Assembly: GCA_964427485.1 (NCBI GenBank)
Contig: CAYRUP010000001.1
Span: forward strand, 1 to 49,875
DNA from: an uncultured Coxiellaceae bacterium
GTDB lineage: Bacteria; Pseudomonadota; Gammaproteobacteria; DSM-16500
Direction of reading: 5' to 3'
DNA: 49,875 bases
Part shown: positions 5,221-48,430 of the stretch, in pieces
Numbering within the stretch: position 1 is the stretch's first letter
Layout of the letters: each line of letters opens with the position of its first letter
Notes under the pieces: model-generated
What the model saw: only the letters and a program-made list of their open reading frames with translations
Databases searched by the model: none
Told to the model about the DNA's origin: nothing
Position numbers and translations under genes: made by a program

Positions 5221-5262
5221 CTCCCTTCTCCCGTTTACGGGAGAAGGGCCGGGGATGAGGGT
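5221..5262. repeat. R1 palindromic repeat, half copy
   Basis: CTCCCTTCTCCC-GTTTAC-GGGAGAAGGGCCGGGGATGAGGGT is one hairpin plus the terminal GGGGATGAGGGT box. It lies in the tatD-lolC spacer. Confidence 0.85.
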
Positions 5263-6536: not shown

Positions 6537-7209
6537 TTCAGTTATTGCCTGTTCAAATTTGGCAAAAATTTACCTCGACGCAGCCGCGCAAGTGGATGTG
6601 TTGCGCCAAATTGACTTAGCTGTAAAACCCGCTGAATTAGTCGCAATTGTGGGAAGTTCCGGTTCGGGTAAAAGCACATTATTGCATTTATTGGGTGGAT
6701 TGGATAAACCGACTACCGGCAAAGTTTGGGTGGCGGGTAAAGATTTGGCACAATTATCTGAGAATGAAAAATGTCGCTTGCGTAATGAATCGCTTGGTTT
6801 TGTCTATCAATTCCATCATTTGTTGCCGGAATTTACCGCATTAGAAAATGTCAGCATGCCTTTATTAATCCGTGGGATTCAACCAGAAATCATTGCAACC
6901 AAAGCCACTGCATTACTGGAATCAGTTGGATTGCAAAATCGTATGCAGCATAAAATTGGTGAACTGTCAGGTGGTGAGCGGCAACGTGTTGCTATCGCTC
7001 GTGCTTTGATTGCACAACCTTTATGTGTACTTGCTGATGAACCTACGGGAAATCTGGATCCACGCAATGCGGATAAAGTTTTGCAGCTATTTCTTGAATT
7101 ACAGAAAGAACATAAAACTAGCGTTGTGATGGTTACGCATGATAGAAATATTGCTAAACATGCACAGCGCATATTGGTGCTTGAGGATGGGAAGTTAACG
7201 GCTGCTTGA
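6529..7209 (+). CDS. lolD: lipoprotein-releasing system ATP-binding protein
   Basis: Walker A GSSGSGKST, ABC signature LSGGERQR and Walker B VLADEPTGNLD. Start at ATG 6529 (MSNSVIACSNL) overlaps the lolC stop (ATGAGTAA). The upstream part of track ORF 6382-7209 lies inside lolC. Confidence 0.92.
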   Translation: MSNSVIACSNLAKIYLDAAAQVDVLRQIDLAVKPAELVAIVGSSGSGKSTLLHLLGGLDKPTTGKVWVAGKDLAQLSENEKCRLRNESLGFVYQFHHLLPEFTALENVSMPLLIRGIQPEIIATKATALLESVGLQNRMQHKIGELSGGERQRVAIARALIAQPLCVLADEPTGNLDPRNADKVLQLFLELQKEHKTSVVMVTHDRNIAKHAQRILVLEDGKLTAA

Positions 7210-7213
7210 TAAT

Positions 7214-7312
7214 ACCCTCATCCCCAACCCTTCTCCCGTAAACGGGAGAAGGGAGTTAGTTGCTTGTCTCCCTTCTCCCAACGTAGTTGGGAGAAGGGCA
7301 GGGGATGAGGGT
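7214..7312. repeat. R1 palindromic repeat, full copy
   Basis: ACCCTCATCCCC-AACCCTTCTCCC-loop-GGGAGAAGGGAG-spacer-CTCCCTTCTCCC-loop-GGGAGAAGGGCAGGGGATGAGGGT. This is two hairpins nested in a terminal palindrome, beginning 5 nt after the lolD stop. Confidence 0.9.
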
Positions 7313-7361
7313 CTACACAACCCACCTTCCTCTTGATTATTTTGTTTTTATACCTTCATCC

Positions 7362-7392
7362 CCATTCCTCCTCGTAAACAGGAGAAGGGAGT
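7362..7392. repeat. R1 palindromic repeat, degenerate half copy
   Basis: ACCTTCATCCCCATTCCTCCTCGTAAACAGGAGAAGGGAGT is a decayed version of the left half of R1, lying 50 nt after the full copy. Confidence 0.6.
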
Positions 7393-7435
7393 TAACGGTT
7401 CCTCTATCTCTCTTACCCCCACTCAGGACTCACCC

Positions 7436-9721
7436 ATGCGCATGTGGACTCTCGCGTTTTTATCAGGCGTTTTACTATTACAACAATTTGCTCAAATACC
7501 CGCGCAATATTGGATTGTCATTGCGATTTTTTTTGCTTTTATTATCGAATGGATATTAGTAAAAAAGGGGCGCTATTACCGATTACTCGCAGCCTTGTTC
7601 TTCGGGTTTGCTTGGGCATTATTTTATGCGCATTGTATTTTGAGTTGGGAACTACCCAAGGAATGGGAAGGTAAGCCATTACTTGTCAGTGGTTATATTG
7701 CAGATATTCCTGTGGTTTCAGAACATAGAACAACATTTTTATTTAATCTAAAAAAAATTCAATCTGACAATGCGCGTACATTGATTAAATTATCCTGGCA
7801 AAACCCGCAAGTTATTTTGCATCCGGGCGATCAATGGCAATTTGTCGTGCACTTAAAACGTATTCATGGTTTGAGAAATCCGGGTGGTTTTGATTATGAA
7901 GCATGGGCTTTTCAAACAGGGATTCGTGCCAGTGGTTATATCGTCATGGAATCTCAAACCAAGTTATTAGCAAGTCATTGGTATCATTATCCACTTAACC
8001 GAATTCGTGAAAAGTTGAAAGAAAAAATTGAAAAAAATCTACCGACGAGTAACACATCAGCTTGGATTAGCGCGCTTGCCTTGGGAGAACGCCAAAATAT
8101 TTCTGCAGAAAATTGGGAAATACTTCGAAAAACAGGCACGAATCATCTCATGGCGATTGCAGGGTTGCATATTGGATTGATGGCAAGTTTCGTTTTTTTA
8201 TTAGTAAAAGGGTGCTGGCGACGCGTGACGTATCTCACTTTGAAAATGCCTGCACAATACGCGGGAGCAATCGCAGCTTTTGTTATGGCGCTTCTATACA
8301 GTGCATTGGCTGGATTTTCGATTCCGACACAGCGCGCGTGCATTATGCTTTCTATCACTCTCATCATGTTACTGATGCAGAGAAATACAATTGCATGGCA
8401 AGCTTGGTGTATCGCGATGCTTTGTGTACTTTTCCTAAATCCTCTCTCAGTACTGACAGAAAGTTTTTGGTTATCTTTTTGTTCGGTCGCCCTGATTATT
8501 TATGGCATCAGCGGGCGTCTCGCACCTAAAAACCTTTGGTGGAAAATAGGGAGAATACAATGGGTCATTGCACTCGGTTTAATTCCCTTAAGTATTTGGC
8601 TTTTTCAAGAATGTTCATTGATTTCCTTTATTGCAAATAGCCTAGCGATTCCTTGGGTTGGATTTATTGTCGTACCTTTGACATTGCTGGGCTGTTTTTT
8701 CTTATTATTTTCTTCGGTATTCGGTGGATTTGTTTTATGGATAGCAGATAAAACGCTCGCTGTTTTATGGATTATTTTAACTTATCTTTCCAGCGTATCC
8801 TGGGCATCTTGGTCAGTCGTGATGCCAGCACAGTGGATTTTATTTATGGCGTGTTTGGGCATGGTGATATTGCTCGTACCGGCAGGATTTCCTGGACGTT
8901 ATTTTGGGTTTGTTTGGCTGCTGCCTTTATTATTTTATCATTATCCAGCACCTAAAAAGGGAGAAGTTTGGTTTACATTGCTCGATGTGGGTCAGGGACT
9001 TTCTGCGGTTATTCAAACAAAACAGCATATTGTTGTATTTGATGCGGGATCGAAGTTAAGTAGTAATTGTGATATGGGAGAAAGTGTCGTCGTGCCTTTT
9101 TTACATTCTCGCGGCGTGAAAAAAATTGATATGTTGGTGATAAGTCATGGCGATAATGATCACATAGGTGGTGCGCCTGCATTAGGTGAACATTTTCCTA
9201 TACTAGCAGCAAGAACCAGTCATCCAGAAAAATTATTCTCTTTGCCGAGTCAATATTGTTTGCGCGGTGAAACATGGGAATGGGATAAGGTGACTTTCGC
9301 ATTTCTTTATCCACCCGCGGATAAATTAAATTTAGATAACAATAGTTCGTGTGTATTGCGTATCACAGATGAAAATGAACATCATATTCTACTGACAGGT
9401 GACATTGAAAAATTAGCTGAAAATTATTTATTGCAAGTCGATCCAAAAAATTTATCGACGGATATTTTAATTGCACCCCATCATGGCAGTAAAACATCCG
9501 CTGTGACGGAGTTTGTGAAAGAAGTGAATCCAAGTTATGTTTTATTTCCGGTAGGGTATCGCAATCGTTATCATTTTCCAAATGTAAGCGTGTTAGAAAA
9601 ATACCGTGCATTAAATGCCAAACTATTTTCAACAGTCGATGATGGTGCAATTCAATTTGCACTATCAACCGATAAAACGCCGCGGCTTTATCGATTAGAT
9701 CACAAAAAATATTGGAATTAA
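7436..9721 (+). CDS. comEC: DNA internalization competence protein ComEC/Rec2
   Basis: 761 aa. Polytopic membrane core with a C-terminal metallo-beta-lactamase domain (ISHGDNDHIGG, APHHGSK). Confidence 0.9.
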   Translation: MRMWTLAFLSGVLLLQQFAQIPAQYWIVIAIFFAFIIEWILVKKGRYYRLLAALFFGFAWALFYAHCILSWELPKEWEGKPLLVSGYIADIPVVSEHRTTFLFNLKKIQSDNARTLIKLSWQNPQVILHPGDQWQFVVHLKRIHGLRNPGGFDYEAWAFQTGIRASGYIVMESQTKLLASHWYHYPLNRIREKLKEKIEKNLPTSNTSAWISALALGERQNISAENWEILRKTGTNHLMAIAGLHIGLMASFVFLLVKGCWRRVTYLTLKMPAQYAGAIAAFVMALLYSALAGFSIPTQRACIMLSITLIMLLMQRNTIAWQAWCIAMLCVLFLNPLSVLTESFWLSFCSVALIIYGISGRLAPKNLWWKIGRIQWVIALGLIPLSIWLFQECSLISFIANSLAIPWVGFIVVPLTLLGCFFLLFSSVFGGFVLWIADKTLAVLWIILTYLSSVSWASWSVVMPAQWILFMACLGMVILLVPAGFPGRYFGFVWLLPLLFYHYPAPKKGEVWFTLLDVGQGLSAVIQTKQHIVVFDAGSKLSSNCDMGESVVVPFLHSRGVKKIDMLVISHGDNDHIGGAPALGEHFPILAARTSHPEKLFSLPSQYCLRGETWEWDKVTFAFLYPPADKLNLDNNSSCVLRITDENEHHILLTGDIEKLAENYLLQVDPKNLSTDILIAPHHGSKTSAVTEFVKEVNPSYVLFPVGYRNRYHFPNVSVLEKYRALNAKLFSTVDDGAIQFALSTDKTPRLYRLDHKKYWN

Positions 9722-14784: not shown

Positions 14785-17647
<2,863 letters not shown>

Positions 17648-17657
17648 AGGGGTAGAT

Positions 17658-17764
17658 ACCCTCATCCCCGACCCTTCTCCCGTTGCCGGGAGAAGGGAGC
17701 TGATAAGAAGTAGCTCCCTTCTCCCGACGCAGAATGCGTTGGGAGAAGGGCAGGGGATGAGGGT
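17658..17764. repeat. R1 palindromic repeat, full copy
   Basis: ACCCTCATCCCCGACCCTTCTCCC-GTTGCC-GGGAGAAGGGAGC...GCTCCCTTCTCCC-GACGCAGAATGCGTT-GGGAGAAGGGCAGGGGATGAGGGT, beginning 11 nt after the ligA stop. The reverse complement of the copy at 24805-24910 matches it except for the central spacer and a few bases. Confidence 0.9.
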
Positions 17765-17986: not shown

Positions 17987-18835
17987 TTACCCCAATTTAT
18001 AGCCTGAAGGGGGATTCATTGCACTGCTTCCCGATGGCGATGGGCTTCCTGATGAACCTTTTTTAGAAAGTAGCAACAAACCACCTCCGATGAAGGCAGT
18101 TAATGCGACGGTAGTTAATACTGCTATCGAATTCATTTCTTTTTCTTCGCCAGGTTGATCAGTTAGAGCAGGCTTATAAGCGTCAATCAGTGTGCTAAAT
18201 GGCGTTGGCGTACCGAGCAGAATATTTTTAACAATCTCATTATCTGTCTCAATTCGATCAAGTTGATAGCCATATTGATCATTGCGTTTGATGAGTGAAA
18301 AATAGGAAGTAATAGGACCAGGAATAGCACCATTACAGTCAGCAAACAGAATTGGAATTTCGGAATAAGTGCACATCAATTTAATCGTATTGGATTTTTT
18401 ATCACGCACAATATTCACTTGAGTAAATTCATTTGGGTACTGAATAATTTCCAATAAATTGACTGTGCTAGGACAGCGTATTTTTGCCAATAATAAATTG
18501 TATGTAACCATTCCAACTGCTTGAGTATTTGCTTCAATGATCGCATTCGCATTTTCTTTGCCGCCAAATAATTCAGATAATTTAGCAAGAATTTCATCAT
18601 CTCTGATTTTATTAATTGGTTTACCAGGGAAATAATCAGCAAGTGATTTACCTTCACATAAAAAATTTCTCTGCAAATAGTCTTTGCGAAATTGTGTCAT
18701 TTTTTCTTCTGAGCCTGGTTCAAAAAAACCGCGAGCAATAAATTGAGTCACATCTTTCATTAATAATGATGGAACAGAAGAAGAAAGAATTTTTAATCCA
18801 GCTTCTAATCGATAGCGATGAATAGTATGAGGCAT
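17987..18835 (-). CDS. hypothetical tail-anchored membrane protein (orphan)
   Basis: 282-aa ORF with GGAG 7 nt upstream of the ATG, 38 nt downstream of the NRPS-like gene on the same strand. It has a single C-terminal TM helix (IAVLTTVALTAFIGGGLLLL) followed by a GSSGSPSPSGSS low-complexity tail. I recognise no domain. Confidence 0.6.
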   Translation of the reverse strand: MPHTIHRYRLEAGLKILSSSVPSLLMKDVTQFIARGFFEPGSEEKMTQFRKDYLQRNFLCEGKSLADYFPGKPINKIRDDEILAKLSELFGGKENANAIIEANTQAVGMVTYNLLLAKIRCPSTVNLLEIIQYPNEFTQVNIVRDKKSNTIKLMCTYSEIPILFADCNGAIPGPITSYFSLIKRNDQYGYQLDRIETDNEIVKNILLGTPTPFSTLIDAYKPALTDQPGEEKEMNSIAVLTTVALTAFIGGGLLLLSKKGSSGSPSPSGSSAMNPPSGYKLG

Positions 18836-18873
18836 AACAAAACTCCATGTAAGTAATTACCCAGTATAATATA

Positions 18874-21800
18874 TCAAATGAAAATTTGCTTCCGCTTTCC
18901 TTCCGGCGTCGGTAAGAAACCAATTTCACAAAGATATTTCATGTAAAGACGTAATAATCGATCATTTAAATCAGGATAAGAAATTCCAGCGGTTTTAAGC
19001 GCAGCGATCGTGTGATTCATTTCAATTTTATACGCGTTAGGCGGAGTGATTTTTGATAAATAATGGGGTAAAAAAGAAAAGAGCGCATTTTCAGGACCAA
19101 TTTTGGTAAGATGTTGGCGCCATTCTTTGTGAGAACATAATTTGATTGTATAACCATAATCATTTAGCCATGCAATCAAATCAGTCCACATAATTCCATT
19201 CGGATGATCGATATGATAAACATTAGATTTGTCAGGTTTTTGTAACGACAAATTAATGATAGCTTTACTGACGAAATCAACAGGTAATAACCGAATTTGT
19301 TCGTGCCAATTCGGTGCAAGACCGAGTTGAATACAGCCTTTGATGAGCAACAATAAAGAATCATTCATGTTGGTAATGCCACTATCTGATTGTCCCCAGA
19401 TATGACCCGAACGATAAATCGAAACCGGTAGACCACGATTTTTTAATTGCGTCAGAAGGCGTTCAGAAACCCATTTGCTGAGTGCGTAGCCACCCACAAG
19501 TTGACTGGCATTGGCATCAGGAAATTCTTCTAATAGATGATTTTTATCATCTATTTTATTTGCTGCAGAAAGGGTTGAAATATAATGGATAGGTTTATCA
19601 TATTGCTGTAAGGCAAATTTAATCATTTCTATCGTACCTTGTACATTGCTGGTGCGTAAATTAGTGTAAGAAGTAATTGTATTAATTTGTGCACTACAGT
19701 GATAAATCAAGTCAATTTTTCCAGCGAGACTTTTGTAAAGCTCAACCGGAATTCCAAACTGATCATTGCCGACATCACTTTCAATCATCACGATCCGTCG
19801 ATTCGCTAGGGAAATTTCATCCGATAATTCATACCGATCAATATTCGTGATGAGACGTGTGGCAATGCTTTCAAATTTTCCTTTACGAATCAGACAATAA
19901 ATTTTTGCATCCGTATTGGCTAACAATTCACGTAATAGATAAATACCAAGAAAACCTGCGGAACCTGTCAGTAATATCCCTTGAGGATTATAAATTGAAG
20001 AACTTAATATTTTATTTGGAATGACATCATCATGTAAAACGGCATCCCGCGCAATTTCATCTTGTATCGAAGTCTTGTGAGTATAATGCGTTCCTTTTGA
20101 CTCAATATATTCTGCCATGATTGGAATAAACGGTAACTCAAAAAATATTCGTTCAGGAAGCGCTAATTTAAATTTTTGTAAGATACGTACGGATAATTCA
20201 GCGACGCGTTGGGAATTACCACCGATATCAAAAAAATTGTCTGTGATACTGACGGAATCTAAATTTAAAATATCACACCACATCGCATAAATTTCTTTTT
20301 CAATTTCATTACGCGGTTCAGCATGACTCCGTTCTAATAATCGCTCAAAATCTTTAGGCGGAGGTAATAAGCGCCAATCAATTTTTCCATTAAATGTTAA
20401 AGGCAGATTGGTTAGCGTACTAAAAACAGTAGGAATCATGTAATTCGGTAATTTGCGTTTAAGCGCGCTCCTTAAGCTACGCTTCGCTGCTGCGCTTTGC
20501 AGTGTTTCCATGAGATTATGCGTTGAAAGATAATATTCGACACTTTTTTGTAATAAATTTTGTTGTTTATTGGTTTGCTCAAATTGAATGCCTGCACGTT
20601 GTTCGCGCTGCCAAATGACTTTGCCACTTAACCACAATGCTTCGTTGAAACCCGGTAATTTTAAATTTAAGCGTACACTCTGGCCTTTGACTAATTCATC
20701 AGTCGCGCCGGTTAGGGCAATACCTGACTTTGAAATATCTTCACTTAATGCTTGTAAATAATGCATTTTGTCGATAGAGATGAGACAGCGTTCTTGATAA
20801 GGAATACGGATTTTATCTAGATTAGGTACAAGATAGGCGATTAATGTTTTAGCGCCATTCGTCAATTCTTTTGCAATAACAACCACTTCATTGACATCAG
20901 GATATTGATTCAATGCAGTTTCAATTTCGCTGAGTTCGATGCGATAGCCACTTAATTTTATTTGATGATCAATACGACCTACAAATTCCAAATTTCCATC
21001 TTTAAGCCAACGAACTAAATCACCCGTACGATAAACTTTTGCATCGGGGTCATCACTAAAAATGTTACGAACAAATTTGTCGCGCGTCAATTGTGGACGA
21101 TTCAAATAGCCTGCGGAAAGATTTGCACCGCCAATTAAAAGTTCGCCTACATTACCGATCGGTACCGGTTCCATGTGTTGATCAACCACATAGACTTCTG
21201 AGTTTGCCAGCGCTTTTCCTATGGGTGGCGGCAAATGTTTTGTGGCATCCGGTGGTGTATTTGCGTGATAAATTTTAATAAAGGTTGTTTCAATCGTTGC
21301 TTCAGCAGGACCATACACATTCCAGATATCGAATGGATAAATTTGCGCGGGATAATGCGCGAGCATTTCACCACCTAATTTGATTAATCTAAGACTGAGT
21401 TGATCAGGCCAAGAAAGATTAAATAACACTTGCGCATAAGCAGTAGGTAAATCACAAAGCGTAATTTTTTCCTGTACGAGCCAAGCCATGAATAATGCTG
21501 GCGAAAATTTCACATGATCATCGACTATATTGATATTTGCACCGTTTAAAAGAAAAGGAATAGTTTCACAAAAAAACGTATCAAAACCCTGTGAAGCAAA
21601 TTGCGATGCACGATCGTTGGAAGTAATATCAAAACAGGATTTATACCAATTGCTTAAGTTGACCAAGCTTGAGTGATTAATGATGACTCCTTTGGGTTCG
21701 CCTGTTGTGCCTGAAGTATAAATAACATAGGCATGCCGTTCATTACTATCGGATTTAACAATCGGTAATTGTTTCGGGAGATGCTTTACCACAGAAAGAT

Positions 21801-23010
21801 TTTCATCAATAATAACGGTCTTATATAAAAATTCCTTATCAATTCTTTGTGTATTGTTGACTAAAATAAGATGCGTTGTGCTATCTTCAATGATGAATTT
21901 AATGTTTTCATCGGAATATTTTGGATTAATTGGAACATAGACTGCGCCAATTTTAAATATGGCAAGCATGGTTGCAATTAAAAGTGGGGTACGTTCCATC
22001 AAGACAGCGATCGTATCTCCAAAACGGATTTTGCGTTGTGCTAAGAGATGGGCAATTTGATTGGAGATTTCATCTAATTCTTTGTAGGTCATATTGGTTT
22101 GGTTGTGTGTGATAGCAATATAATCCGGTGTTCGTCGCGCTTGTTGGATAAATAAATTATGCACGCATTCATTTTTTTTGACGGAAAAACGTTTGTATTG
22201 CAGTTTATTCCATTCATGCAATAATTCTTGTCTTTCTTCGGAAGTCAGAATCGAATAATGCGTCACTAATTGATCAGGATCAGATACAATTTTTTTAAGT
22301 ATTACGCGATAATGTTCTATTAAATTGACTAGACTATCTTGTGTGAATCGTTTCGTATTACATAAAATGCTTAATTTTAATGGAGATTCACTTTGCATAA
22401 TCAATACAAGTGGATAAATACCAGGATCTAACGTACTGAGATTTAAATTTTCTTTTTGAATGGAAGTAATTTTTTTCGATGGATAGAGTAATAAATAATT
22501 AAATAAATTTTTAAAGGCAGCGCTGCTTTGAGTTTCTTTGCCAAATGTTTTTATATGTTTATTGTTTTCTATTAATTTTGCTTCTGTGTTATTTAAATAA
22601 TTCAATATCGTTTCTTCTTCATGAATAGTCGAGCGCACTGGGAGTAGGGGCGGGAGAATAGATAATTCTTTGCTTTTAGTATTTTTTGCAATACACGCCA
22701 TCCCGTAAATGATATCGTCTGCAGTGGAATAGCGATTTAATAATAATCCCCATGCGCCATGAATAAGGGTGGAAATTGTTAGTTTATTTTTTACTACGAA
22801 TTTTTTTAAAATTTTTGCTAATTCAGAATCAATGGGAATTTCTTCGTGATGATAGGTGCGTATGTTTTTTCTTTTTAAGCTAGATCGATCGATTTCAAAA
22901 TCTTCTAACCATACTTTGGAATGTGAGGAAAAATTTTCAATGACATGCTTCCAATAGCCCGTCATAGCAGGCGTTTTTTTTGCAGATTTTTTTGATTTTT
23001 TGACAGGCAT
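18874..23010 (-). CDS. NRPS-like enzyme: truncated condensation-like domain, adenylation domain with PilZ-like insert, carrier domain, terminal thioester reductase
   Basis: A-domain cores are all readable: A1 MTYKEL, A2 FKIGAVYVPINP, A3 YVIYTSGTTGEPKGV, A4 FDTFFCE, A5 NVYGPAEAT, A6 GELLIGGANLSAGYL, A7 YRTGDL, A8 GRIDHQIKLSGYRIELSEIE, A9 LPNYMIP and A10 NGKIDW. Carrier motif is FFDIGGNSQR (Ser933). The reductase has the Rossmann motif LLTGSAGFLG and YALSK (YxxxK). The N-terminal ~260 aa resemble only the C-terminal half of a condensation domain. Confidence 0.92.
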   Translation of the reverse strand: MPVKKSKKSAKKTPAMTGYWKHVIENFSSHSKVWLEDFEIDRSSLKRKNIRTYHHEEIPIDSELAKILKKFVVKNKLTISTLIHGAWGLLLNRYSTADDIIYGMACIAKNTKSKELSILPPLLPVRSTIHEEETILNYLNNTEAKLIENNKHIKTFGKETQSSAAFKNLFNYLLLYPSKKITSIQKENLNLSTLDPGIYPLVLIMQSESPLKLSILCNTKRFTQDSLVNLIEHYRVILKKIVSDPDQLVTHYSILTSEERQELLHEWNKLQYKRFSVKKNECVHNLFIQQARRTPDYIAITHNQTNMTYKELDEISNQIAHLLAQRKIRFGDTIAVLMERTPLLIATMLAIFKIGAVYVPINPKYSDENIKFIIEDSTTHLILVNNTQRIDKEFLYKTVIIDENLSVVKHLPKQLPIVKSDSNERHAYVIYTSGTTGEPKGVIINHSSLVNLSNWYKSCFDITSNDRASQFASQGFDTFFCETIPFLLNGANINIVDDHVKFSPALFMAWLVQEKITLCDLPTAYAQVLFNLSWPDQLSLRLIKLGGEMLAHYPAQIYPFDIWNVYGPAEATIETTFIKIYHANTPPDATKHLPPPIGKALANSEVYVVDQHMEPVPIGNVGELLIGGANLSAGYLNRPQLTRDKFVRNIFSDDPDAKVYRTGDLVRWLKDGNLEFVGRIDHQIKLSGYRIELSEIETALNQYPDVNEVVVIAKELTNGAKTLIAYLVPNLDKIRIPYQERCLISIDKMHYLQALSEDISKSGIALTGATDELVKGQSVRLNLKLPGFNEALWLSGKVIWQREQRAGIQFEQTNKQQNLLQKSVEYYLSTHNLMETLQSAAAKRSLRSALKRKLPNYMIPTVFSTLTNLPLTFNGKIDWRLLPPPKDFERLLERSHAEPRNEIEKEIYAMWCDILNLDSVSITDNFFDIGGNSQRVAELSVRILQKFKLALPERIFFELPFIPIMAEYIESKGTHYTHKTSIQDEIARDAVLHDDVIPNKILSSSIYNPQGILLTGSAGFLGIYLLRELLANTDAKIYCLIRKGKFESIATRLITNIDRYELSDEISLANRRIVMIESDVGNDQFGIPVELYKSLAGKIDLIYHCSAQINTITSYTNLRTSNVQGTIEMIKFALQQYDKPIHYISTLSAANKIDDKNHLLEEFPDANASQLVGGYALSKWVSERLLTQLKNRGLPVSIYRSGHIWGQSDSGITNMNDSLLLLIKGCIQLGLAPNWHEQIRLLPVDFVSKAIINLSLQKPDKSNVYHIDHPNGIMWTDLIAWLNDYGYTIKLCSHKEWRQHLTKIGPENALFSFLPHYLSKITPPNAYKIEMNHTIAALKTAGISYPDLNDRLLRLYMKYLCEIGFLPTPEGKRKQIFI
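18877..19983 (-). other. terminal thioester reductase (SDR) domain of the NRPS-like protein
   Basis: Residues ~1010-1378 contain GILLTGSAGFLGIYLLRELL, IYCLIRK, HCSAQIN and GGYALSKWVSE, which is the pattern of NRPS/CAR terminal R domains. Confidence 0.8.
20482..20811 (-). other. PilZ-like insertion inside the adenylation domain (residues ~734-843)
   Basis: 156 residues separate A8 (678-697) from A9 (854-860), where roughly 50-60 is usual. The extra segment reads IRIPYQERCLISIDKMHYLQALSEDISKSGIALTGATDELVKGQSVRLNLKLPGFNEALWLSGKVIWQREQRAGIQFEQ. It contains a DxSxxG motif (DISKSG, nt 20722-20739) and a PilZ-style beta-strand pattern. The Arg motif is non-canonical (RIPYQER). Confidence 0.5.
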
Positions 23011-23022
23011 TACAATGTCCTC

Positions 23023-24651
23023 TCAAAAGGTCATCAAACTTCTTTCTTCTAATTTGGCGATTTTATTAAATTGTAAAATAATCTTTTGTTCCGGTAAGGG
23101 TCTGCTGAGGTAATAACCTTGCACGATATCACACCCATTATCTGCGAGATATTGCAATTGTTCTGCGGTTTCAACGCCTTCTGCCACGACTTTCATTCCA
23201 AGACTATGCGCCAGTGCAATGACTGCACTGATAATGGCGGTATCATTTTGATTGTAAGAAATTCCTTTAATAAATGTTTGATCGATTTTCAAAATGCTAA
23301 TTGGAAATTTTTTAAGATAACTGATCGAAGTATATCCGGTGCCAAAATCATCCACAGAAATATGTACGCCACTATTTTTGATACGTTGCAGTTTACTCAC
23401 TGTTGCTTCAACATCTGACATCATTGCGGTTTCTGTGATTTCAAGTTCGAGATATTTGGGGTCAAGTGAAAATTCCAAAAGAATACTTTCAACTAATTTT
23501 GCAATATCTTGATGTTGAAATTGTTTTGGCGAAAGATTAACAGCAACGATGACAGGTTCGAAGCCTTGTTGCTGCCAAGCTTTACTCGCTTTGCAAGCTT
23601 CGCGTAATGCCCATTCACCAATTTGCATGATAAGACCTGTTTCCTCGGCGAGCGGAATAAACTCAATGGGGTTAATCAAACCCAGTTCCGGATTTTCCCA
23701 ACGAATTAATGCTTCTACACCTGCAATTGAGCCATCATTTAAATTTAATTTTGGTTGATAATGCAGTACAAATTCATTATTACTAATGGCTTTTCGCAAT
23801 GCAGCTTCAAGTTTTATATGCTCATGTGCTTCCACACTCATTTCTCGAGTGAAATATTGAAATACGCTGCCACCGGATTGTTTTACATTGTGCATGACGA
23901 TATCGGCATTTTTTTGTAAATCTTCCAGTGATTCTCCATCATTTGGGTAAATACAAATGCCAATACTAATCGTCACCATTAATTCATGATTTTCAATTTT
24001 GATGGGCTCAGCACACACTTGTAATAATTTATCAGCGACGGGACTTGCAAATTTGGGATGTCCAATATCATTTAATAAAATGATAAATTCATCGCCGCCC
24101 AATCGAGCTAAAATATCACCCGAACGTAATACCGTTCTAAAACGATTGGCTATTTCTTTTAAAACGAGATCGCCTGCGGCAACACCCAGTTCATCATTTA
24201 TATTTTTAAATCGATCAATATCAATAAATAAAATAGCCATCATTTTTTTATGCCGGCTTGAATGGTGGAGGGTTTTGTTGAGCATTTCATGAAAAAAAAC
24301 GCGATTGGGCAATGAGGTTAAATCATCGTAATGTGCCAAATGGATTAAATGTGCTTTATGAAGGGTGAGTTCATTTTCAATTTGTTCGTGATCAGTGAGT
24401 TCTTGATTTAATTGTGGATGATTATCTATCGGCTTTGCAGGTGGATCAAGATGATTGAGTATCAGAAAATCGAATAGCCATAGAATAAGTAGTAATGATG
24501 TTGCCCCTAAGATGATAAAACTGATGGTATAAATGGGTGTTGGATCTGAGAAGCTGCGCATTAAAAAGAGTTTTGATCCAGTATAAGTTAGCGTGAGAAA
24601 ACTAACCCAGACTAGACCCACTCCAAATAATATTTTATTGCGCAACTTCAT
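23023..24651 (-). CDS. membrane-anchored diguanylate cyclase/phosphodiesterase (GGDEF with I-site + EAL)
   Basis: Two N-terminal TM helices. RSGDILARLGGDEF carries an RxxD I-site 5 residues before an intact GGDEF. EAL motifs are GVEALIRW, DDFGTGYTSISYLKKFPISILKIDQTFI and AEGVET. Start placed at ATG 24651 (MKLRNKILFG) 5 nt after AAGGAG. ATG 24774 is the long alternative. The stop lies 12 nt before the NRPS-like start. Confidence 0.9.
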   Translation of the reverse strand: MKLRNKILFGVGLVWVSFLTLTYTGSKLFLMRSFSDPTPIYTISFIILGATSLLLILWLFDFLILNHLDPPAKPIDNHPQLNQELTDHEQIENELTLHKAHLIHLAHYDDLTSLPNRVFFHEMLNKTLHHSSRHKKMMAILFIDIDRFKNINDELGVAAGDLVLKEIANRFRTVLRSGDILARLGGDEFIILLNDIGHPKFASPVADKLLQVCAEPIKIENHELMVTISIGICIYPNDGESLEDLQKNADIVMHNVKQSGGSVFQYFTREMSVEAHEHIKLEAALRKAISNNEFVLHYQPKLNLNDGSIAGVEALIRWENPELGLINPIEFIPLAEETGLIMQIGEWALREACKASKAWQQQGFEPVIVAVNLSPKQFQHQDIAKLVESILLEFSLDPKYLELEITETAMMSDVEATVSKLQRIKNSGVHISVDDFGTGYTSISYLKKFPISILKIDQTFIKGISYNQNDTAIISAVIALAHSLGMKVVAEGVETAEQLQYLADNGCDIVQGYYLSRPLPEQKIILQFNKIAKLEERSLMTF

Positions 24652-24710
24652 AATGGCTCCTTTAGATACAAAAAGATCAAGCCACCGTGGAATGCGGTTG
24701 GTATAAGTGT

Positions 24711-24719
24711 ATTTTAACA
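24711..24719 (-). promoter_or_regulatory. candidate extended -10 promoter element for the GGDEF-EAL/NRPS operon
   Basis: The minus strand reads TGTTAAAAT (TGn + TAAAAT), ~60 nt upstream of ATG 24651 and inside the long-ORF extension. This favours the shorter start. Pattern match only. Confidence 0.3.
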
Positions 24720-24804
24720 TATTATGCTGGCAGGTTTTTGCTATTTTGCGGTGTTTTGATCTTGTTGTGGTCATTCTTCTTGAGCGTAATTACAGATTTT
24801 CAGC

Positions 24805-24910
24805 ACCCTCATCCCCAGCCCTTCTCCCAACGCATTCTGCGTTGGGAGAAGGGAGTTTAACATTTTAGCTCCCTTCTCCCGGCAACGGGAGAAGGGCTGG
24901 GGATGAGGGT
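24805..24910. repeat. R1 palindromic repeat, full copy (inverted relative to 17658-17764)
   Basis: ACCCTCATCCCCAGCCCTTCTCCC-AACGCATTCTGCGTT-GGGAGAAGGGAG...CTCCCTTCTCCC-GGCAAC-GGGAGAAGGGCTGGGGATGAGGGT. It has the same two loop sequences as the 17658 copy, in the opposite order. Confidence 0.9.
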
Positions 24911-24921
24911 GTAGAATGACA

Positions 24922-25740
24922 TTATGTCCTTGATGATGGGCTACTACGTTGATGTTCTTGTAACTCTACTTCTATTGGAGATTCTTGCTTATCTTCTTTA
25001 CCTAATTTATCTAAATGAATTGTTATACTCCTATATAAGTTTCCTTTACTTTTTCCTTCTGTCACTCTCTTTTCAATAGTTTTTTTGAATTCTCTCAATT
25101 GATCTCTTACCGCTTCGTCAGATTCTGCTTTGTTTAATGCGAGAGCGAGTGTTTTTGCTATTTCTATAATATAATCTTTCCTCTCTTTTCTTTCTAATAA
25201 ATAATCCAATACGATATTTAAACTTGATGTTTTAACATCTTCAACGCTCGTCTTATTTTTTGCTTGAAAGATAGATTTCTTAATAGTTTCCTCAATTTCA
25301 ATTTCTCTTTTTCTTTTCCATAAAAGTTCATCCAAGATGACACTTTTTACCCTCGTTTTATATTCTGCCTCTACTTTTATCATAGCTGCGGAACCATAAA
25401 GTCTAGATAATTTTGCTAATTGTGCATCCACAACTTCTTGCAATCTTCCTGGCTTACCATTGAGCTGAGCAGAATAAAATTCATTTATTCTTTTTAATAC
25501 CATTAAAATAAGAATTATTTCACCTCGTGAACGGGTGGTGGATTTATTGGCGTCTTCTATGTGATCGAGCGCAGTTTCTATCAAGAAATTTTTTTTGTCA
25601 TAAAGAGTCTTATCATCGCTCCACTTCTCTTTGCGGCAATAATAAGTTAACAAGATTCCTCGCGTTGAATCTTTAAAATAATCAAAAGTATTAGATTCTA
25701 GGTCATAATCTTTACTTTCATACACGGCTCTATCTTTCAT
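24922..25740 (-). CDS. hypothetical protein, K/E-rich, predicted helical (orphan)
   Basis: 272-aa ORF in a stretch that looks markedly AT-rich by eye. Charged, heptad-like sequence (KRKREIEIEETIKKSIF..., LREFKKTIEKRVTEGKSKG). I recognise no domain. Confidence 0.6.
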   Translation of the reverse strand: MKDRAVYESKDYDLESNTFDYFKDSTRGILLTYYCRKEKWSDDKTLYDKKNFLIETALDHIEDANKSTTRSRGEIILILMVLKRINEFYSAQLNGKPGRLQEVVDAQLAKLSRLYGSAAMIKVEAEYKTRVKSVILDELLWKRKREIEIEETIKKSIFQAKNKTSVEDVKTSSLNIVLDYLLERKERKDYIIEIAKTLALALNKAESDEAVRDQLREFKKTIEKRVTEGKSKGNLYRSITIHLDKLGKEDKQESPIEVELQEHQRSSPSSRT

Positions 25741-33948: not shown

Positions 33949-35442
33949 ATGTCTAGAGCAAGAGAAACAATTCAAGCATCATCAATTGATTTTGATGGTT
34001 GTTATGGTCGACAAGAATTAAAAAAGTCAAAAAAGTCAAACGTAGCAAACAATACACATGTAGCAAACAATACGCATTTGGTGACCGAGATATGCGGTAA
34101 CCGTGGTCGAAAAATATTGATGGTAGGTTCTAATCGACAAGATTACTACGTTAATAAACATAATTCTGAAAAAAATGGCAACGGCTGCTGTTTTTCAGAA
34201 ATGGTAATTTTAGAAAGCTATCTAAAAACACAACAAATTCCAGTTCACTTAGACAAACTCTTATTAGCCGATATCGACAATTACTATCCACTCGGCTTTT
34301 CTTTCGATAGGGCATTACAAGAAGATGCTAAAAAGATTAAGCATCTGGAGTGGGCTCACGCATGGGATAATTCAAAACTAAGGATTCTCTATGCGCAAAT
34401 GCATTATTTGGCATCTGAAAATCCTAATGCAGATATTAACTATGATTTTTATGATGATAGAAAGGAGATGCTTCTCGGTTTAAATAAATTATTTAAGAAA
34501 AATCCTGGATTAAAACCCGGTAATGTAAAATTAAATTTACGTCATTGGGCCGGCGGTGATGATGGTCCAGATTTGATTGGCTCCCATGATTTTTCTGATG
34601 AGACACCTATTGATTATAATTGGCAAAATAATGTTAGGTTTTTAGGAAGTGACGAAAACTGCGAGGGTTATGATACAGAACGGAAAGTTCGTCCCGAAAT
34701 GATTCCCAATTTTTTACAAAAACGTGTCTTAATTGATCCAAAATATAAAAACGAAGTTTGTGAATTTAAGTTTTCTGAAGTTTTTGAATTTAAGTCTTCT
34801 CTTGATAAGCAACTTAAAGATGCAAATCACTCTCGTCACACACAAGAATTTAAAAATGCACTAGACATCTATGTAAACATAAATCCAACGTTATTATCTA
34901 GTGATGAGAGATTTCTATATTTTAAGAAATTAGCGCGGACATTTTTTGATTATGCCAAAGAAAATCCTGCTTTTGTCAAAAAGAATAAGGCACTCTTTTC
35001 CCAATATACTTCAATAGGAGCATTAATACAAAAATTCAAATTTGAGTATTTCTGTGACGTTCAAAAAAAATCGCCTAATGAGGCAAAAAATCTTTTTGCT
35101 AAGATTGAGTTCCGTCTTTTGAGTGCGGTAGATAGGGAAAGATATAGAGATAAAATGCCTAGAATCCATGGAAGTGAGTTTAAAAGTATTATTCAAAAAT
35201 ATAATAATTCACTAGCATGGTGGAGCGCTGGCTTATTCGGTGGTAGCGACGCTATGAAAGAGTTAAAAAAATTAAGTGATAAAGACTACGTGACTATAGA
35301 TCAAATGGAAGAAGCTATTTGCACTGATAAAGAAGGTGGAAGAAGGGTTGCTTTATTGCGTGGCGTGGGTTCAGTGAATGGCAGTAACACAGATGCGATA
35401 ATCCACGAGCTCAGTGGAGCATTTCAGCTGAAACCAACATAA
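33949..35442 (+). CDS. hypothetical protein (orphan, effector-like)
   Basis: 497-aa ORF in a stretch that looks AT-rich by eye. No TM helix or signal peptide. Short tandem repeats lie near the N-terminus (KKS KKS, VANNTH VANNTH). I recognise no domain. Confidence 0.65.
   Translation: MSRARETIQASSIDFDGCYGRQELKKSKKSNVANNTHVANNTHLVTEICGNRGRKILMVGSNRQDYYVNKHNSEKNGNGCCFSEMVILESYLKTQQIPVHLDKLLLADIDNYYPLGFSFDRALQEDAKKIKHLEWAHAWDNSKLRILYAQMHYLASENPNADINYDFYDDRKEMLLGLNKLFKKNPGLKPGNVKLNLRHWAGGDDGPDLIGSHDFSDETPIDYNWQNNVRFLGSDENCEGYDTERKVRPEMIPNFLQKRVLIDPKYKNEVCEFKFSEVFEFKSSLDKQLKDANHSRHTQEFKNALDIYVNINPTLLSSDERFLYFKKLARTFFDYAKENPAFVKKNKALFSQYTSIGALIQKFKFEYFCDVQKKSPNEAKNLFAKIEFRLLSAVDRERYRDKMPRIHGSEFKSIIQKYNNSLAWWSAGLFGGSDAMKELKKLSDKDYVTIDQMEEAICTDKEGGRRVALLRGVGSVNGSNTDAIIHELSGAFQLKPT
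34042..34077 (+). repeat. 18-nt tandem duplication inside the 497-aa ORF
   Basis: GTAGCAAACAATACACAT / GTAGCAAACAATACGCAT (VANNTH x2), preceded by AAAAAGTCA x2 (34021-34038). Confidence 0.85.
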
Positions 35443-44998: not shown

Positions 44999-45044
44999 CT
45001 CCCTTCTCCCAGCGATAGCTGGGAGAAGGGTAGGGGATGAGGGT
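44999..45044. repeat. R1 palindromic repeat, half copy
   Basis: CTCCCTTCTCCC-AGCGATAGCT-GGGAGAAGGGTAGGGGATGAGGGT, ending 48 nt beyond the stop of the Lon-like gene (which lies on the minus strand). Confidence 0.85.
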
Positions 45045-48342: not shown

Positions 48343-48430
48343 ACCCTCATCCCCAGCCCTTCTCCCAACTGCGAGCTTTTTCATTTTTTCTCCCTTCTCC
48401 CGGCAACGGGAGAAGGGCAGGGGATGAGGG
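48343..48430. repeat. R1 palindromic repeat, full-length copy with decayed first hairpin
   Basis: ACCCTCATCCCCAGCCCTTCTCCCAACTGCGAGC...TCTCCCTTCTCCC-GGCAAC-GGGAGAAGGGCAGGGGATGAGGG. It fills the convergent csbD/MFS spacer. Confidence 0.85.

Follow-up and report, generated by a model that had tools for sequence, protein, structure and literature searches.

A stretch of 49,875 nucleotides from an uncultured Coxiellaceae bacterium (contig CAYRUP010000001.1), referred to here as the window, carries three consecutive minus-strand genes that encode a membrane protein with GGDEF and EAL domains, an enzyme resembling a nonribosomal peptide synthetase (NRPS-like) and an orphan protein. We found that the adenylation (A) domain of the NRPS-like enzyme is, as judged from alignments and a structure model, interrupted between its motifs a8 and a9 by a domain with a PilZ fold. 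The reading that we favour, at a probability of roughly one half, is that this insert is a regulatory receptor through which cyclic di-GMP (c-di-GMP) would gate the interrupted A domain, with the neighbouring GGDEF-EAL protein as the source or the sink of the signal. The parts of the enzyme are listed below, where C* denotes the C-terminal lobe of a condensation (C) domain, Asub the mobile subdomain of the A domain, T the carrier domain and R the thioester reductase domain; residues are given in amino acids (aa).

18874..23010, minus strand: NRPS-like gene, 1378 aa, with the architecture C*-A(a8-PilZ-a9)-T-R (Pfam, NCBIfam and PDB-chain alignments).
22219..22965, minus strand: C*, aa 16-264 (Pfam Condensation, profile positions 194-456 only).
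20821..22146, minus strand: adenylation core and first part of Asub, aa 289-730, with motifs a1-a8, ending in the strand TLIAYLVPN.
20476..20820, minus strand: PilZ insert, aa 731-845, a six-stranded barrel with helices (Pfam PilZ and AlphaFold2 model).
20356..20475, minus strand: resumed Asub, aa 846-885, with a9 (LPNYMIP) and a10 (NGK876ID), from alignment to LgrA and other A domains.
20107..20295, minus strand: T domain, aa 906-968, with Ser933 in GGNS (Pfam PP-binding; family consensus DlGGnS).
18913..19977, minus strand: terminal R domain, aa 1012-1366, with TGSAGFLG and YALSK (NAD_binding_4, TIGR01746).

The interruption of the A domain was evident in several kinds of alignment. Pfam AMP-binding covered residues 289-636 and AMP-binding_C, with its first half only, residues 695-730, and the PDB chains that aligned to the enzyme covered residues 16/59-730, 279-730 or 981-1370, with all of the A-domain matches ending at about 729-731. 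A profile alignment with LgrA placed about 6 residues between the '...AYLL' strand and the helix before a9 in ordinary A domains and about 114 in the NRPS-like enzyme. The interrupted A domain of TioS (5wmm) matched on both flanks of its methyltransferase, residues 294-731 of our query corresponding to residues 67-486 of the chain and residues ∼846-884 to residues 886-924. A strand of the form L(V/A/I)(A/G)(Y/F)xxP is reported to precede the insert in all a8-a9 interruptions (PMC8341866), and the window boundary, TLIAYLVP, conforms to it. Because of the gap relative to LgrA, the flanking alignment to TioS and the sequence of this boundary, we assign the domain as an a8-PilZ-a9 interrupted A domain. 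Its core motifs are intact on either side of the insert. The insert consists of the PilZ fold and contains no catalytic domain, and thus lacks the tailoring catalyst (methyltransferase, oxidase or ketoreductase) by which interrupted A domains are recognised.

The model of the insert is that of a true PilZ fold. Pfam PilZ (PF07238) matched residues 735-822 with an E-value of 6.9e-11 and a score of 42.8 bits, the gathering cutoff being 22.5. The AlphaFold2 model of residues 700-892, with a mean predicted local distance difference test (pLDDT) of 81, contained two Asub strands, the six strands of the barrel and a long helix, followed by two more helices and then by the a9/a10 segment. Comparison of the insert model with the PDB by Foldseek resulted in 26 matches at E ≤ 0.001, and those listed were PilZ domains only. 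Most of them were complexes with c-di-GMP, among them MotI (5vx6), Alg44 (4rt0, template-modelling score 0.73 on the target), MapZ (5xly and 5y4r), BcsA, PA0012, PlzD and YcgR. The original prediction, which had been made from the letters of the window, had proposed an enzyme of the type C*-A(PilZ-like)-T-R; Pfam confirms this order of domains, and the part described as PilZ-like is, by profile, model and structural comparison, a true PilZ fold inside the A domain.

Conservation was assessed in a family sample of 110 members, which represent about 110 clusters at 90% identity and reach down to 41% identity. The [D/N]hSxxG motif of PilZ domains is intact in the window protein (D758-I-S-K-S-G763). 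In the sample, position 758 was Asp in 99 members and Asn in 11, position 759 was I, F, L, Y or V, S760 was present in 110/110 and G763 in 109/110. R735 was likewise found in 110/110, followed by I/Y/F, P/L and Y/F (the window sequence reads L731-D-K-I-R735-I-P-Y). Sequence-only comparison of the insert with PilZ chains of the PDB gave E ≥ 0.1, which is not significant, so that the equivalence of residues to the RxxxR motif rests on spacing and motif context. An 'R-h-x-h' pattern is known to follow the second Arg of RxxxR (bioRxiv 10.1101/814665). Since R735 shows this context and lies 23 residues ahead of D758, which is the usual spacing, we take it to be the second Arg. The mean identity to the window protein was 51% for the PilZ barrel, 54% for the A core, 52% for the T domain and 59% for the R domain; the similar identity of the insert and the catalytic domains indicates that the insert is under equal constraint.

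The domains around the insert scored above the cutoffs of the NCBIfam models for amino-acid adenylation (TIGR01733, 389 against 317) and for thioester reductases (TIGR01746, 288 against 213). Pfam detected PP-binding at residues 906-968 and NAD_binding_4 at residues 1014-1251 (E 3.6e-57), and the R domain aligned to the R domain of MxaA (PDB 4u7w). The motifs FDTF (with D477), YTSGTTGEPKG, NGK876ID, GGNS933, TGSAGFLG (at 1015) and Y1175ALSK were found, the first and the last two of them (YALSK as YxxxK) having already been pointed out in the original prediction. More than 90% of the family kept the key residues of a3 (YTSGTTGxPKG), a7 (YrTGDL), a8 (GRxDxQvKIrGyR) and a10 (nGKiD), together with the Ser of the carrier and, in the R domain, TGxxGxxG and YxxxK. 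C* aligned to McyB and SrfA-C from their residues ∼200 onward; it lacks both the N-terminal lobe and the HHxxxDG motif and does not qualify as a condensation domain. The gene starts 12 nt past the upstream stop codon, which leaves no space for the missing lobe. With a mean family identity of 28% and 0 invariant columns, this half domain looks vestigial.

The specificity code obtained from motif anchors was D-T-C-D-K-G-V-I-E-K in the window protein and D-[TSA]-C-D-K-G-x-[IV]-E-K across the family. D235 supports an alpha-amino acid as the substrate, a type of substrate that had been suggested earlier from the Asp of FDTF, and the combination of D278, K299 and E331 would suit a side chain that is charged or zwitterionic. 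Identification of the enzyme as an equivalog of MxcG, Lys2, CAR or AusA was rejected because the NCBIfam scores lay far under the curated cutoffs (MxcG 578 against 2300, Lys2 461 against 1030, CAR 197 against 1300; AusA and EntF likewise far under).

The gene upstream of the NRPS-like gene and its domains are as follows.

23023..24774, minus strand: GGDEF-EAL gene, 583 aa as the longest open reading frame (ORF), with two N-terminal transmembrane segments and no periplasmic sensor domain.
23869..24336, minus strand: GGDEF domain, aa 147-302 (Pfam PF00990, E 2e-49), with an RSGD I-site 5 residues ahead of GGDEF.
23098..23805, minus strand: EAL domain, aa 324-559 (Pfam PF00563, E 3e-76), with the full catalytic motif set.

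As the original prediction had stated, the three ORFs (24774..23023, 583 aa; 23010..18874, 1378 aa; 18835..17987, 282 aa) lie on the minus strand with spacers of 12 nt between the GGDEF-EAL and NRPS-like genes and 38 nt between the NRPS-like and orphan genes. Shine-Dalgarno-like sequences were present in both spacers, GAGGA 7 nt ahead of the ATG of the NRPS-like gene and GGAG ahead of that of the orphan. No terminator-like site was detected in the spacers by a scan that was overall no better than chance; its promoter and terminator counts across the window were at or below the shuffle expectation, and it was thus uninformative.

The original prediction was also correct in describing the first protein as a GGDEF-EAL protein with two transmembrane segments and intact GGDEF, RSGD and EAL motifs, as confirmed by Pfam, motif inspection and hydropathy. 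The motifs of the EAL domain, read from the translation, are EALIR, NLS, ELEITE, DDFGTGY, KID, EGVE and QGY, and the window protein is thus complete in its cyclase, I-site and phosphodiesterase motif sets. Because AAGGAG is located 6 nt ahead of an internal ATG at 24651, M42 is probably the true start of the protein, which would then have 542 aa. The two N-terminal hydrophobic segments (48-66 and 79-109) are only about 12 residues apart, which argues that there is no periplasmic sensor between them. Among 22 orthologues from related loci, GG[DE]EF, RxxD, EAL and the N, E, DDFGTG, K, E and Q positions were kept, with the exception of two proteins with GGDEY and two with GSDEF. Most of the orthologues were about 830 aa long, with CHASE4 at the N-terminus and in some cases HAMP behind it; only the subclade of the window had the short form, which measures about 580 aa.

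To describe the neighbourhood of the PilZ-NRPS gene we combined a genome scan, a metagenome scan and eleven contig look-ups, annotated with phmmer, and counted as informative the 26 distinct loci, the window included, in which the sequence upstream of the gene was readable. A GGDEF-EAL orthologue was located directly upstream and on the same strand in 23 of these 26 loci, over a range of NRPS identity of 41-81%. The original prediction was to be given up if the neighbourhood was conserved in no relative, and this pairing shows that it is conserved. About 40 further NRPS family clusters had a longest contig of the same size as one bearing a GGDEF-EAL orthologue, from which we infer that they share that contig. 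In 16 of the 26 loci a gene of the Gcw_chp family (PF09694) stood between the GGDEF-EAL and NRPS genes (for example L081 7014-7862, L084 7160-7981 and L169 9528-10367), with an N-terminus resembling a signal peptide. The usual order was Hsp33 in reverse orientation, then Smr, Udk, CHASE4-GGDEF-EAL, Gcw_chp and NRPS forward, a variable stretch, and LigA, ZipA and SMC in reverse. The Gcw_chp protein, predicted to be an outer-membrane protein, is the conserved third gene of this arrangement and has been lost in the subclade of the window along with CHASE4. It had been asked earlier whether GGDEF-EAL, the interrupted NRPS-like gene and the orphan co-occur in relatives: the first two do, in the 23 loci just described, while the orphan has only 2 homologues, its place as the widespread third gene being taken by Gcw_chp. 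The identity of the compared proteins to those of the window was 63-73% for LigA, 78-95% for Udk, 41-81% for NRPS and 55-80% for GGDEF-EAL, which corresponds roughly to genus- to family-level divergence among the loci.

The insert was not restricted to Coxiellaceae. A representative library was searched by HMMER with a profile of the flanked insert. Because giant NRPSs accumulated score from their many a9-a10 matches and dominated the ranking, we counted only the matches whose best stretch ran over profile positions 1-190. PilZ inserts at the same site of the A domain were found in multimodular NRPSs from Nostoc, Microcoleus, Pantanalinema, Laspinema, a Sericytochromatia metagenome-assembled genome and Candidatus Marithrix. 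These cassettes keep the single Arg, a near-invariant Cys and DxSxxG. Two to three tandem PilZ copies within one A domain were observed in the cyanobacterial or Sericytochromatia proteins P0126 (3853 aa), P0124, P0137, P0139 and P0231 and in L012 875-11962. In P0124 and P0125 each copy is preceded by a 'VAYIVSNL' strand of its own, which suggests that strand and insert were duplicated together. The public annotation of the carriers outside Coxiellaceae reads only 'amino acid adenylation domain-containing protein' or 'non-ribosomal peptide synthetase'.

If the insert is a c-di-GMP receptor, the following mechanism can be proposed. The enzyme would act as a stand-alone single module that activates a single, conserved amino acid by adenylation and transfers it to the carrier domain, and the R domain would release the product reductively as an amino aldehyde or amino alcohol. 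A rotation of about 140 degrees takes Asub from the adenylation to the thiolation state, and in BcsA and YcgR the N-terminal loop that bears the Arg motif of PilZ closes over c-di-GMP and transmits the signal. In the NRPS-like enzyme the ligand would be bound at the face of PilZ formed by R735 and [D/N]-h-S-x-x-G, and the linker from strand to barrel that bears R735 would double as the tether to Asub. Binding could shift the position of the barrel relative to the A core or to the T domain and so favour or block one catalytic state. By altering the swing of Asub between its adenylation and thiolation positions, or the docking of the carrier, c-di-GMP would gate the product post-translationally, as in BcsA. 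The neighbouring membrane GGDEF-EAL enzyme would be the likely dedicated source or sink that sets the local level of c-di-GMP. In most relatives its CHASE4 domain would respond to a periplasmic cue, and Gcw_chp may serve as an outer-membrane route for that cue or for the product. The lineage of the window would then have a stripped-down version, with CHASE4 and Gcw_chp lost and the orphan added downstream.

Several observations weigh against the proposed receptor and its circuit, and we bring them together here with the alternatives to which they lend support. The PilZ fold might not be a c-di-GMP receptor at all and might serve as a structural or docking module, or bind another ligand or partner such as the EAL domain of the neighbour, as in the case of PilZ and FimX in Xanthomonas. 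We consider this doubtful. The argument for it comes from the first Arg of RxxxR, whose position is occupied by a Leu (L731) that is invariant in the family and was never Arg in the cyanobacterial versions of the insert, so that the family, like all distant versions, has only half of the motif. In characterised PilZ domains c-di-GMP is contacted by both Arg residues (bioRxiv 10.1101/814665), and with a half-degenerate RxxxR the binding of c-di-GMP is not assured. Positions K/R733 and R/K741 are conserved in the family and might compensate for the missing Arg. The PDB chains nearest by sequence, only at E 0.1-1, are 3dsg, 3cnr and 4f48, which are PilZ orthologues of Xanthomonas and Pseudomonas that do not bind c-di-GMP, and in most genomes the NRPS gene has a gene for an EAL-domain protein beside it. 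FimX, however, has an EAL domain that is degenerate and senses c-di-GMP, whereas that of the NRPS neighbour is motif-complete. The best structural matches of the insert are also ligand-bound canonical PilZ domains, and neither [D/N]hSxxG nor the second Arg in its 'R-h-x-h' context varies among the ∼110 clusters or between phyla, whereas non-binding PilZ domains typically lack both the [D/N]hSxxG and the Arg motifs (bioRxiv 10.1101/814665). Of the putative c-di-GMP receptor in the original prediction, the fold and the [D/N]hSxxG motif therefore stand and a complete RxxxR does not.

The PilZ domain could also sense the global pool of c-di-GMP without any dedicated circuit, the GGDEF-EAL protein being an ordinary envelope-signal enzyme inherited alongside it between udk and ligA. 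All of the conserved neighbourhoods lie in this one syntenic interval (Hsp33-Smr-Udk ... LigA-ZipA-SMC), the whole of which is syntenic among relatives with LigA 63-73% identical, so that the adjacency of the two genes could be inherited rather than selected. Three genomes have the NRPS without an adjacent GGDEF-EAL gene, with all PilZ motif residues intact: in L002 ankyrin-repeat and HATPase-like proteins take its place, and in L085 and L089 udk abuts the NRPS. In the reverse test, which started from three GGDEF-EAL orthologues located on large contigs, the NRPS lay downstream in L169 and L170 and was absent from L171; the latter, at 7001-9472, keeps CHASE4-GGDEF-EAL with the cyclase motif SGDEF and is a single case that indicates no trend. 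No GGDEF or EAL gene was found within 10 kb of the cyanobacterial PilZ-NRPS loci, and the CHASE4 sensor has been lost from the GGDEF-EAL protein in the lineage of the window. We nevertheless regard it as unlikely that there is no dedicated circuit, considering that the two genes remain neighbours in the same orientation, separated by about 10-70 nt or by Gcw_chp alone, while what follows the NRPS changes repeatedly. The GGDEF-EAL/(Gcw_chp)/NRPS block was contiguous throughout the 23 loci with GGDEF-EAL upstream. Between NRPS and ligA the window has the orphan, Aquicella lusitana a SET-domain protein, L170 DUF5630 and L082 a 2229-aa protein, and L002 has an ankyrin protein along with an M4 protease and a VanX-like protein. 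The context downstream of the block is another one in L086, with coproporphyrinogen oxidase and aconitase. The pairing of GGDEF-EAL and NRPS is thus strongly conserved, but shared synteny is a confounder, and either gene can occur without the other. The local signalling circuit of the original prediction holds in so far as the adjacency is conserved, and is weakened by the single interval, by the persistence of each gene alone and by the loss of CHASE4. A further point on the same side concerns the substrate. The code DTCDKGVIEK could be extracted, as had been suggested, and to our knowledge it fits no described specificity code, for which reason a specific substrate call for the A domain was rejected.

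It is highly improbable that the NRPS-like gene is a relic or a non-functional fragment and that the three ORFs have no joint function. The poorly conserved half C domain and an A domain split by a foreign insert would be in keeping with decay, but the ORF of 1378 aa is intact, the catalytic motifs of A (a3, a7, a8 and a10), T and R are conserved in more than 90% of the 110 clusters down to 41% identity, and insertion between a8 and a9 is tolerated with activity in known interrupted A domains (PMC8341866).

All of the parts described here are known from other systems. TioS (A8-M-A9, PDB 5WMM), KtzH and the other a8-a9 methyltransferase types share with the NRPS-like enzyme the site in Asub, the L-I-A-Y-x-x-P strand and motifs in both halves of the A domain. 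Tandem inserts are common to both groups, with back-to-back M domains in known interrupted A domains and two to three PilZ copies in the cyanobacterial versions. The insert described here is different in that it is a non-catalytic receptor fold of about 115 aa that would regulate, whereas the known interrupted A domains contain a tailoring enzyme of about 400 aa that modifies. A census of bacterial interrupted A domains published in 2020 distinguished seven families, all with methyltransferase inserts, and a PilZ insert is not among them (PMC8341866). Adenylating enzymes are not mentioned in an analysis of PilZ diversity (bioRxiv 10.1101/814665), and a full-text search found, within the searchable literature, no description of PilZ inside an adenylation, NRPS or AMP-binding domain. 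A signalling receptor inside an A domain is thus a new combination, and it defines a family of interrupted A domains that had not been catalogued before. A broader proposal, that the single-Arg PilZ binds c-di-GMP and gates adenylation or thiolation both in the Coxiellaceae modules, together with CHASE4-GGDEF-EAL and Gcw_chp, and in the NRPSs of filamentous cyanobacteria, and so represents the first regulatory class of interrupted A domains, is tentative, and we put it at somewhat less than even.

The NRPS-like enzyme resembles BcsA and Alg44 in having PilZ in cis on the enzyme that it would control, with [D/N]hSxxG intact, a Foldseek match and a c-di-GMP enzyme encoded nearby. In contrast to them, the target is an adenylate-forming NRPS-like enzyme and not a polysaccharide synthase, the PilZ domain is inside a mobile catalytic subdomain and not appended, and Leu stands where RxxxR has its first Arg. 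With PvfC, the Lys2 alpha-aminoadipate reductase, CARs, the terminal module of MxcG and AusA it shares the logic of A-T-R, with TGxxGxxG, YxxxK and reductive release of an aldehyde or alcohol, and it keeps D235 as expected for an alpha-amino acid substrate. It differs from the stand-alone A-T-R reductases by its vestigial half C domain, the PilZ insert, the code DTCDKGVIEK and equivalog scores under the cutoffs. The FimX-PilZ-PilB system of Xanthomonas likewise has a PilZ fold with an incomplete ligand motif beside an EAL-domain protein; there PilZ is without both motifs and the EAL domain is degenerate, whereas the PilZ insert described here has an invariant DxSxxG and one invariant Arg, and the EAL domain beside it looks catalytic.

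The third gene and two copies of a repeat complete the features of the region.

17987..18835, minus strand: orphan gene, 282 aa, with one C-terminal hydrophobic segment, a lineage-specific add-on.
24795..24920, minus strand: copy 1 of a palindromic repeat, between a 272-aa ORF and the GGDEF-EAL gene (RNA fold −88.6 kcal/mol, z = −12.3).
17659..17763, no strand assigned: copy 2 of the palindromic repeat, between the convergent ligA and orphan genes.

The orphan had been described as tail-anchored, in agreement with its single hydrophobic segment (236-257) near the C-terminus, which is followed by a tail of 25 aa. No match to the orphan was obtained in Pfam or NCBIfam. Its 2 homologues among 5.8 billion proteins are 52-59% identical, and the genes for both come directly after the NRPS gene in L001 and L168, which are the closest relatives. 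The AlphaFold2 model was poor (pLDDT 55), and Foldseek gave no significant fold match to it, the best being scattered NTF2-like folds at E 0.06; an NTF2-like fold was not accepted as evidence from such a match and model. By this distribution the orphan is a young, lineage-specific addition outside the conserved module. The flanks of the NRPS in the relatives were a hotspot of lineage-specific, often eukaryote-like genes (L002 5106-7807 and 12121-15672; L081 12061-12468; L170 13606-14721; L082 12692-19381), reminiscent of the effector-rich regions of Legionellales. The 2229-aa protein of L082 had no domain match, and the VanX-like gene of the hotspot is that of a dipeptidase. The orphan of the window may belong to the same turnover.

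The palindromic intergenic repeat is about 105-125 nt long, with arms GGGAGAAGGGCTGGGGATGAGGG that gave 10 arm matches in the window compared with 0 expected, and it looks like a REP- or MITE-like element. Besides the two copies listed, which bracket the three-gene unit, copies or matches were found at 7215-7311, 48344-48430, 5239-5261 and 45021-45043. The repeat may mark transcript boundaries, and the copy at 24795-24920 would then be a likely boundary upstream of the unit.

The window has a G+C content of about 0.40, and its remaining genes are chromosomal housekeeping genes, including fabF, mltG/yceG, holB, a lolC-like gene, comEC, smc, zipA and ligA, along with udk, smr, hsp33, an RND efflux pump, an acyl-CoA dehydrogenase and lon. 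The three-gene unit is therefore not located inside a biosynthetic island. The nearest public loci are labelled 'uncultured Coxiellaceae bacterium', and the nearest named organism is A. lusitana, whose NRPS-like protein is WP_114833928. Between udk and the GGDEF-EAL gene there is an ORF for a highly charged protein of 272 aa (24922-25740, minus strand) that had no Pfam or NCBIfam match and was not present at the equivalent position in any of the related loci examined, the closest, L001, included. Another ORF, of 497 aa (33949-35442, plus strand), had no Pfam match and lies in a stretch of low G+C (about 0.35) downstream of the RND efflux genes. The longest ORF of ligA (15530-17647, plus strand) begins at a GTG and overlaps zipA by about 120 nt; its real start is probably an internal Met (MTVKTSS...), which is also the start of the L002 orthologue.

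The output of NRPSs is known to be regulated by transcription or by partner proteins such as MbtH. If the proposed reading is true, the enzyme described here would represent direct allosteric control of an NRPS by a second messenger, and an enzyme of secondary metabolism would constitute a new class of c-di-GMP target. The single-Arg variant of PilZ bears on the minimal motif for binding of c-di-GMP. The a8-a9 loop is already in use for the engineering of interrupted A domains, and a natural ligand-sensing insert at this site would offer a ready template for building NRPS modules that can be switched. The family is compact, consisting of one protein of about 1350 aa, and it is widespread (∼110 clusters at 90% identity) and includes the named species A. 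lusitana.

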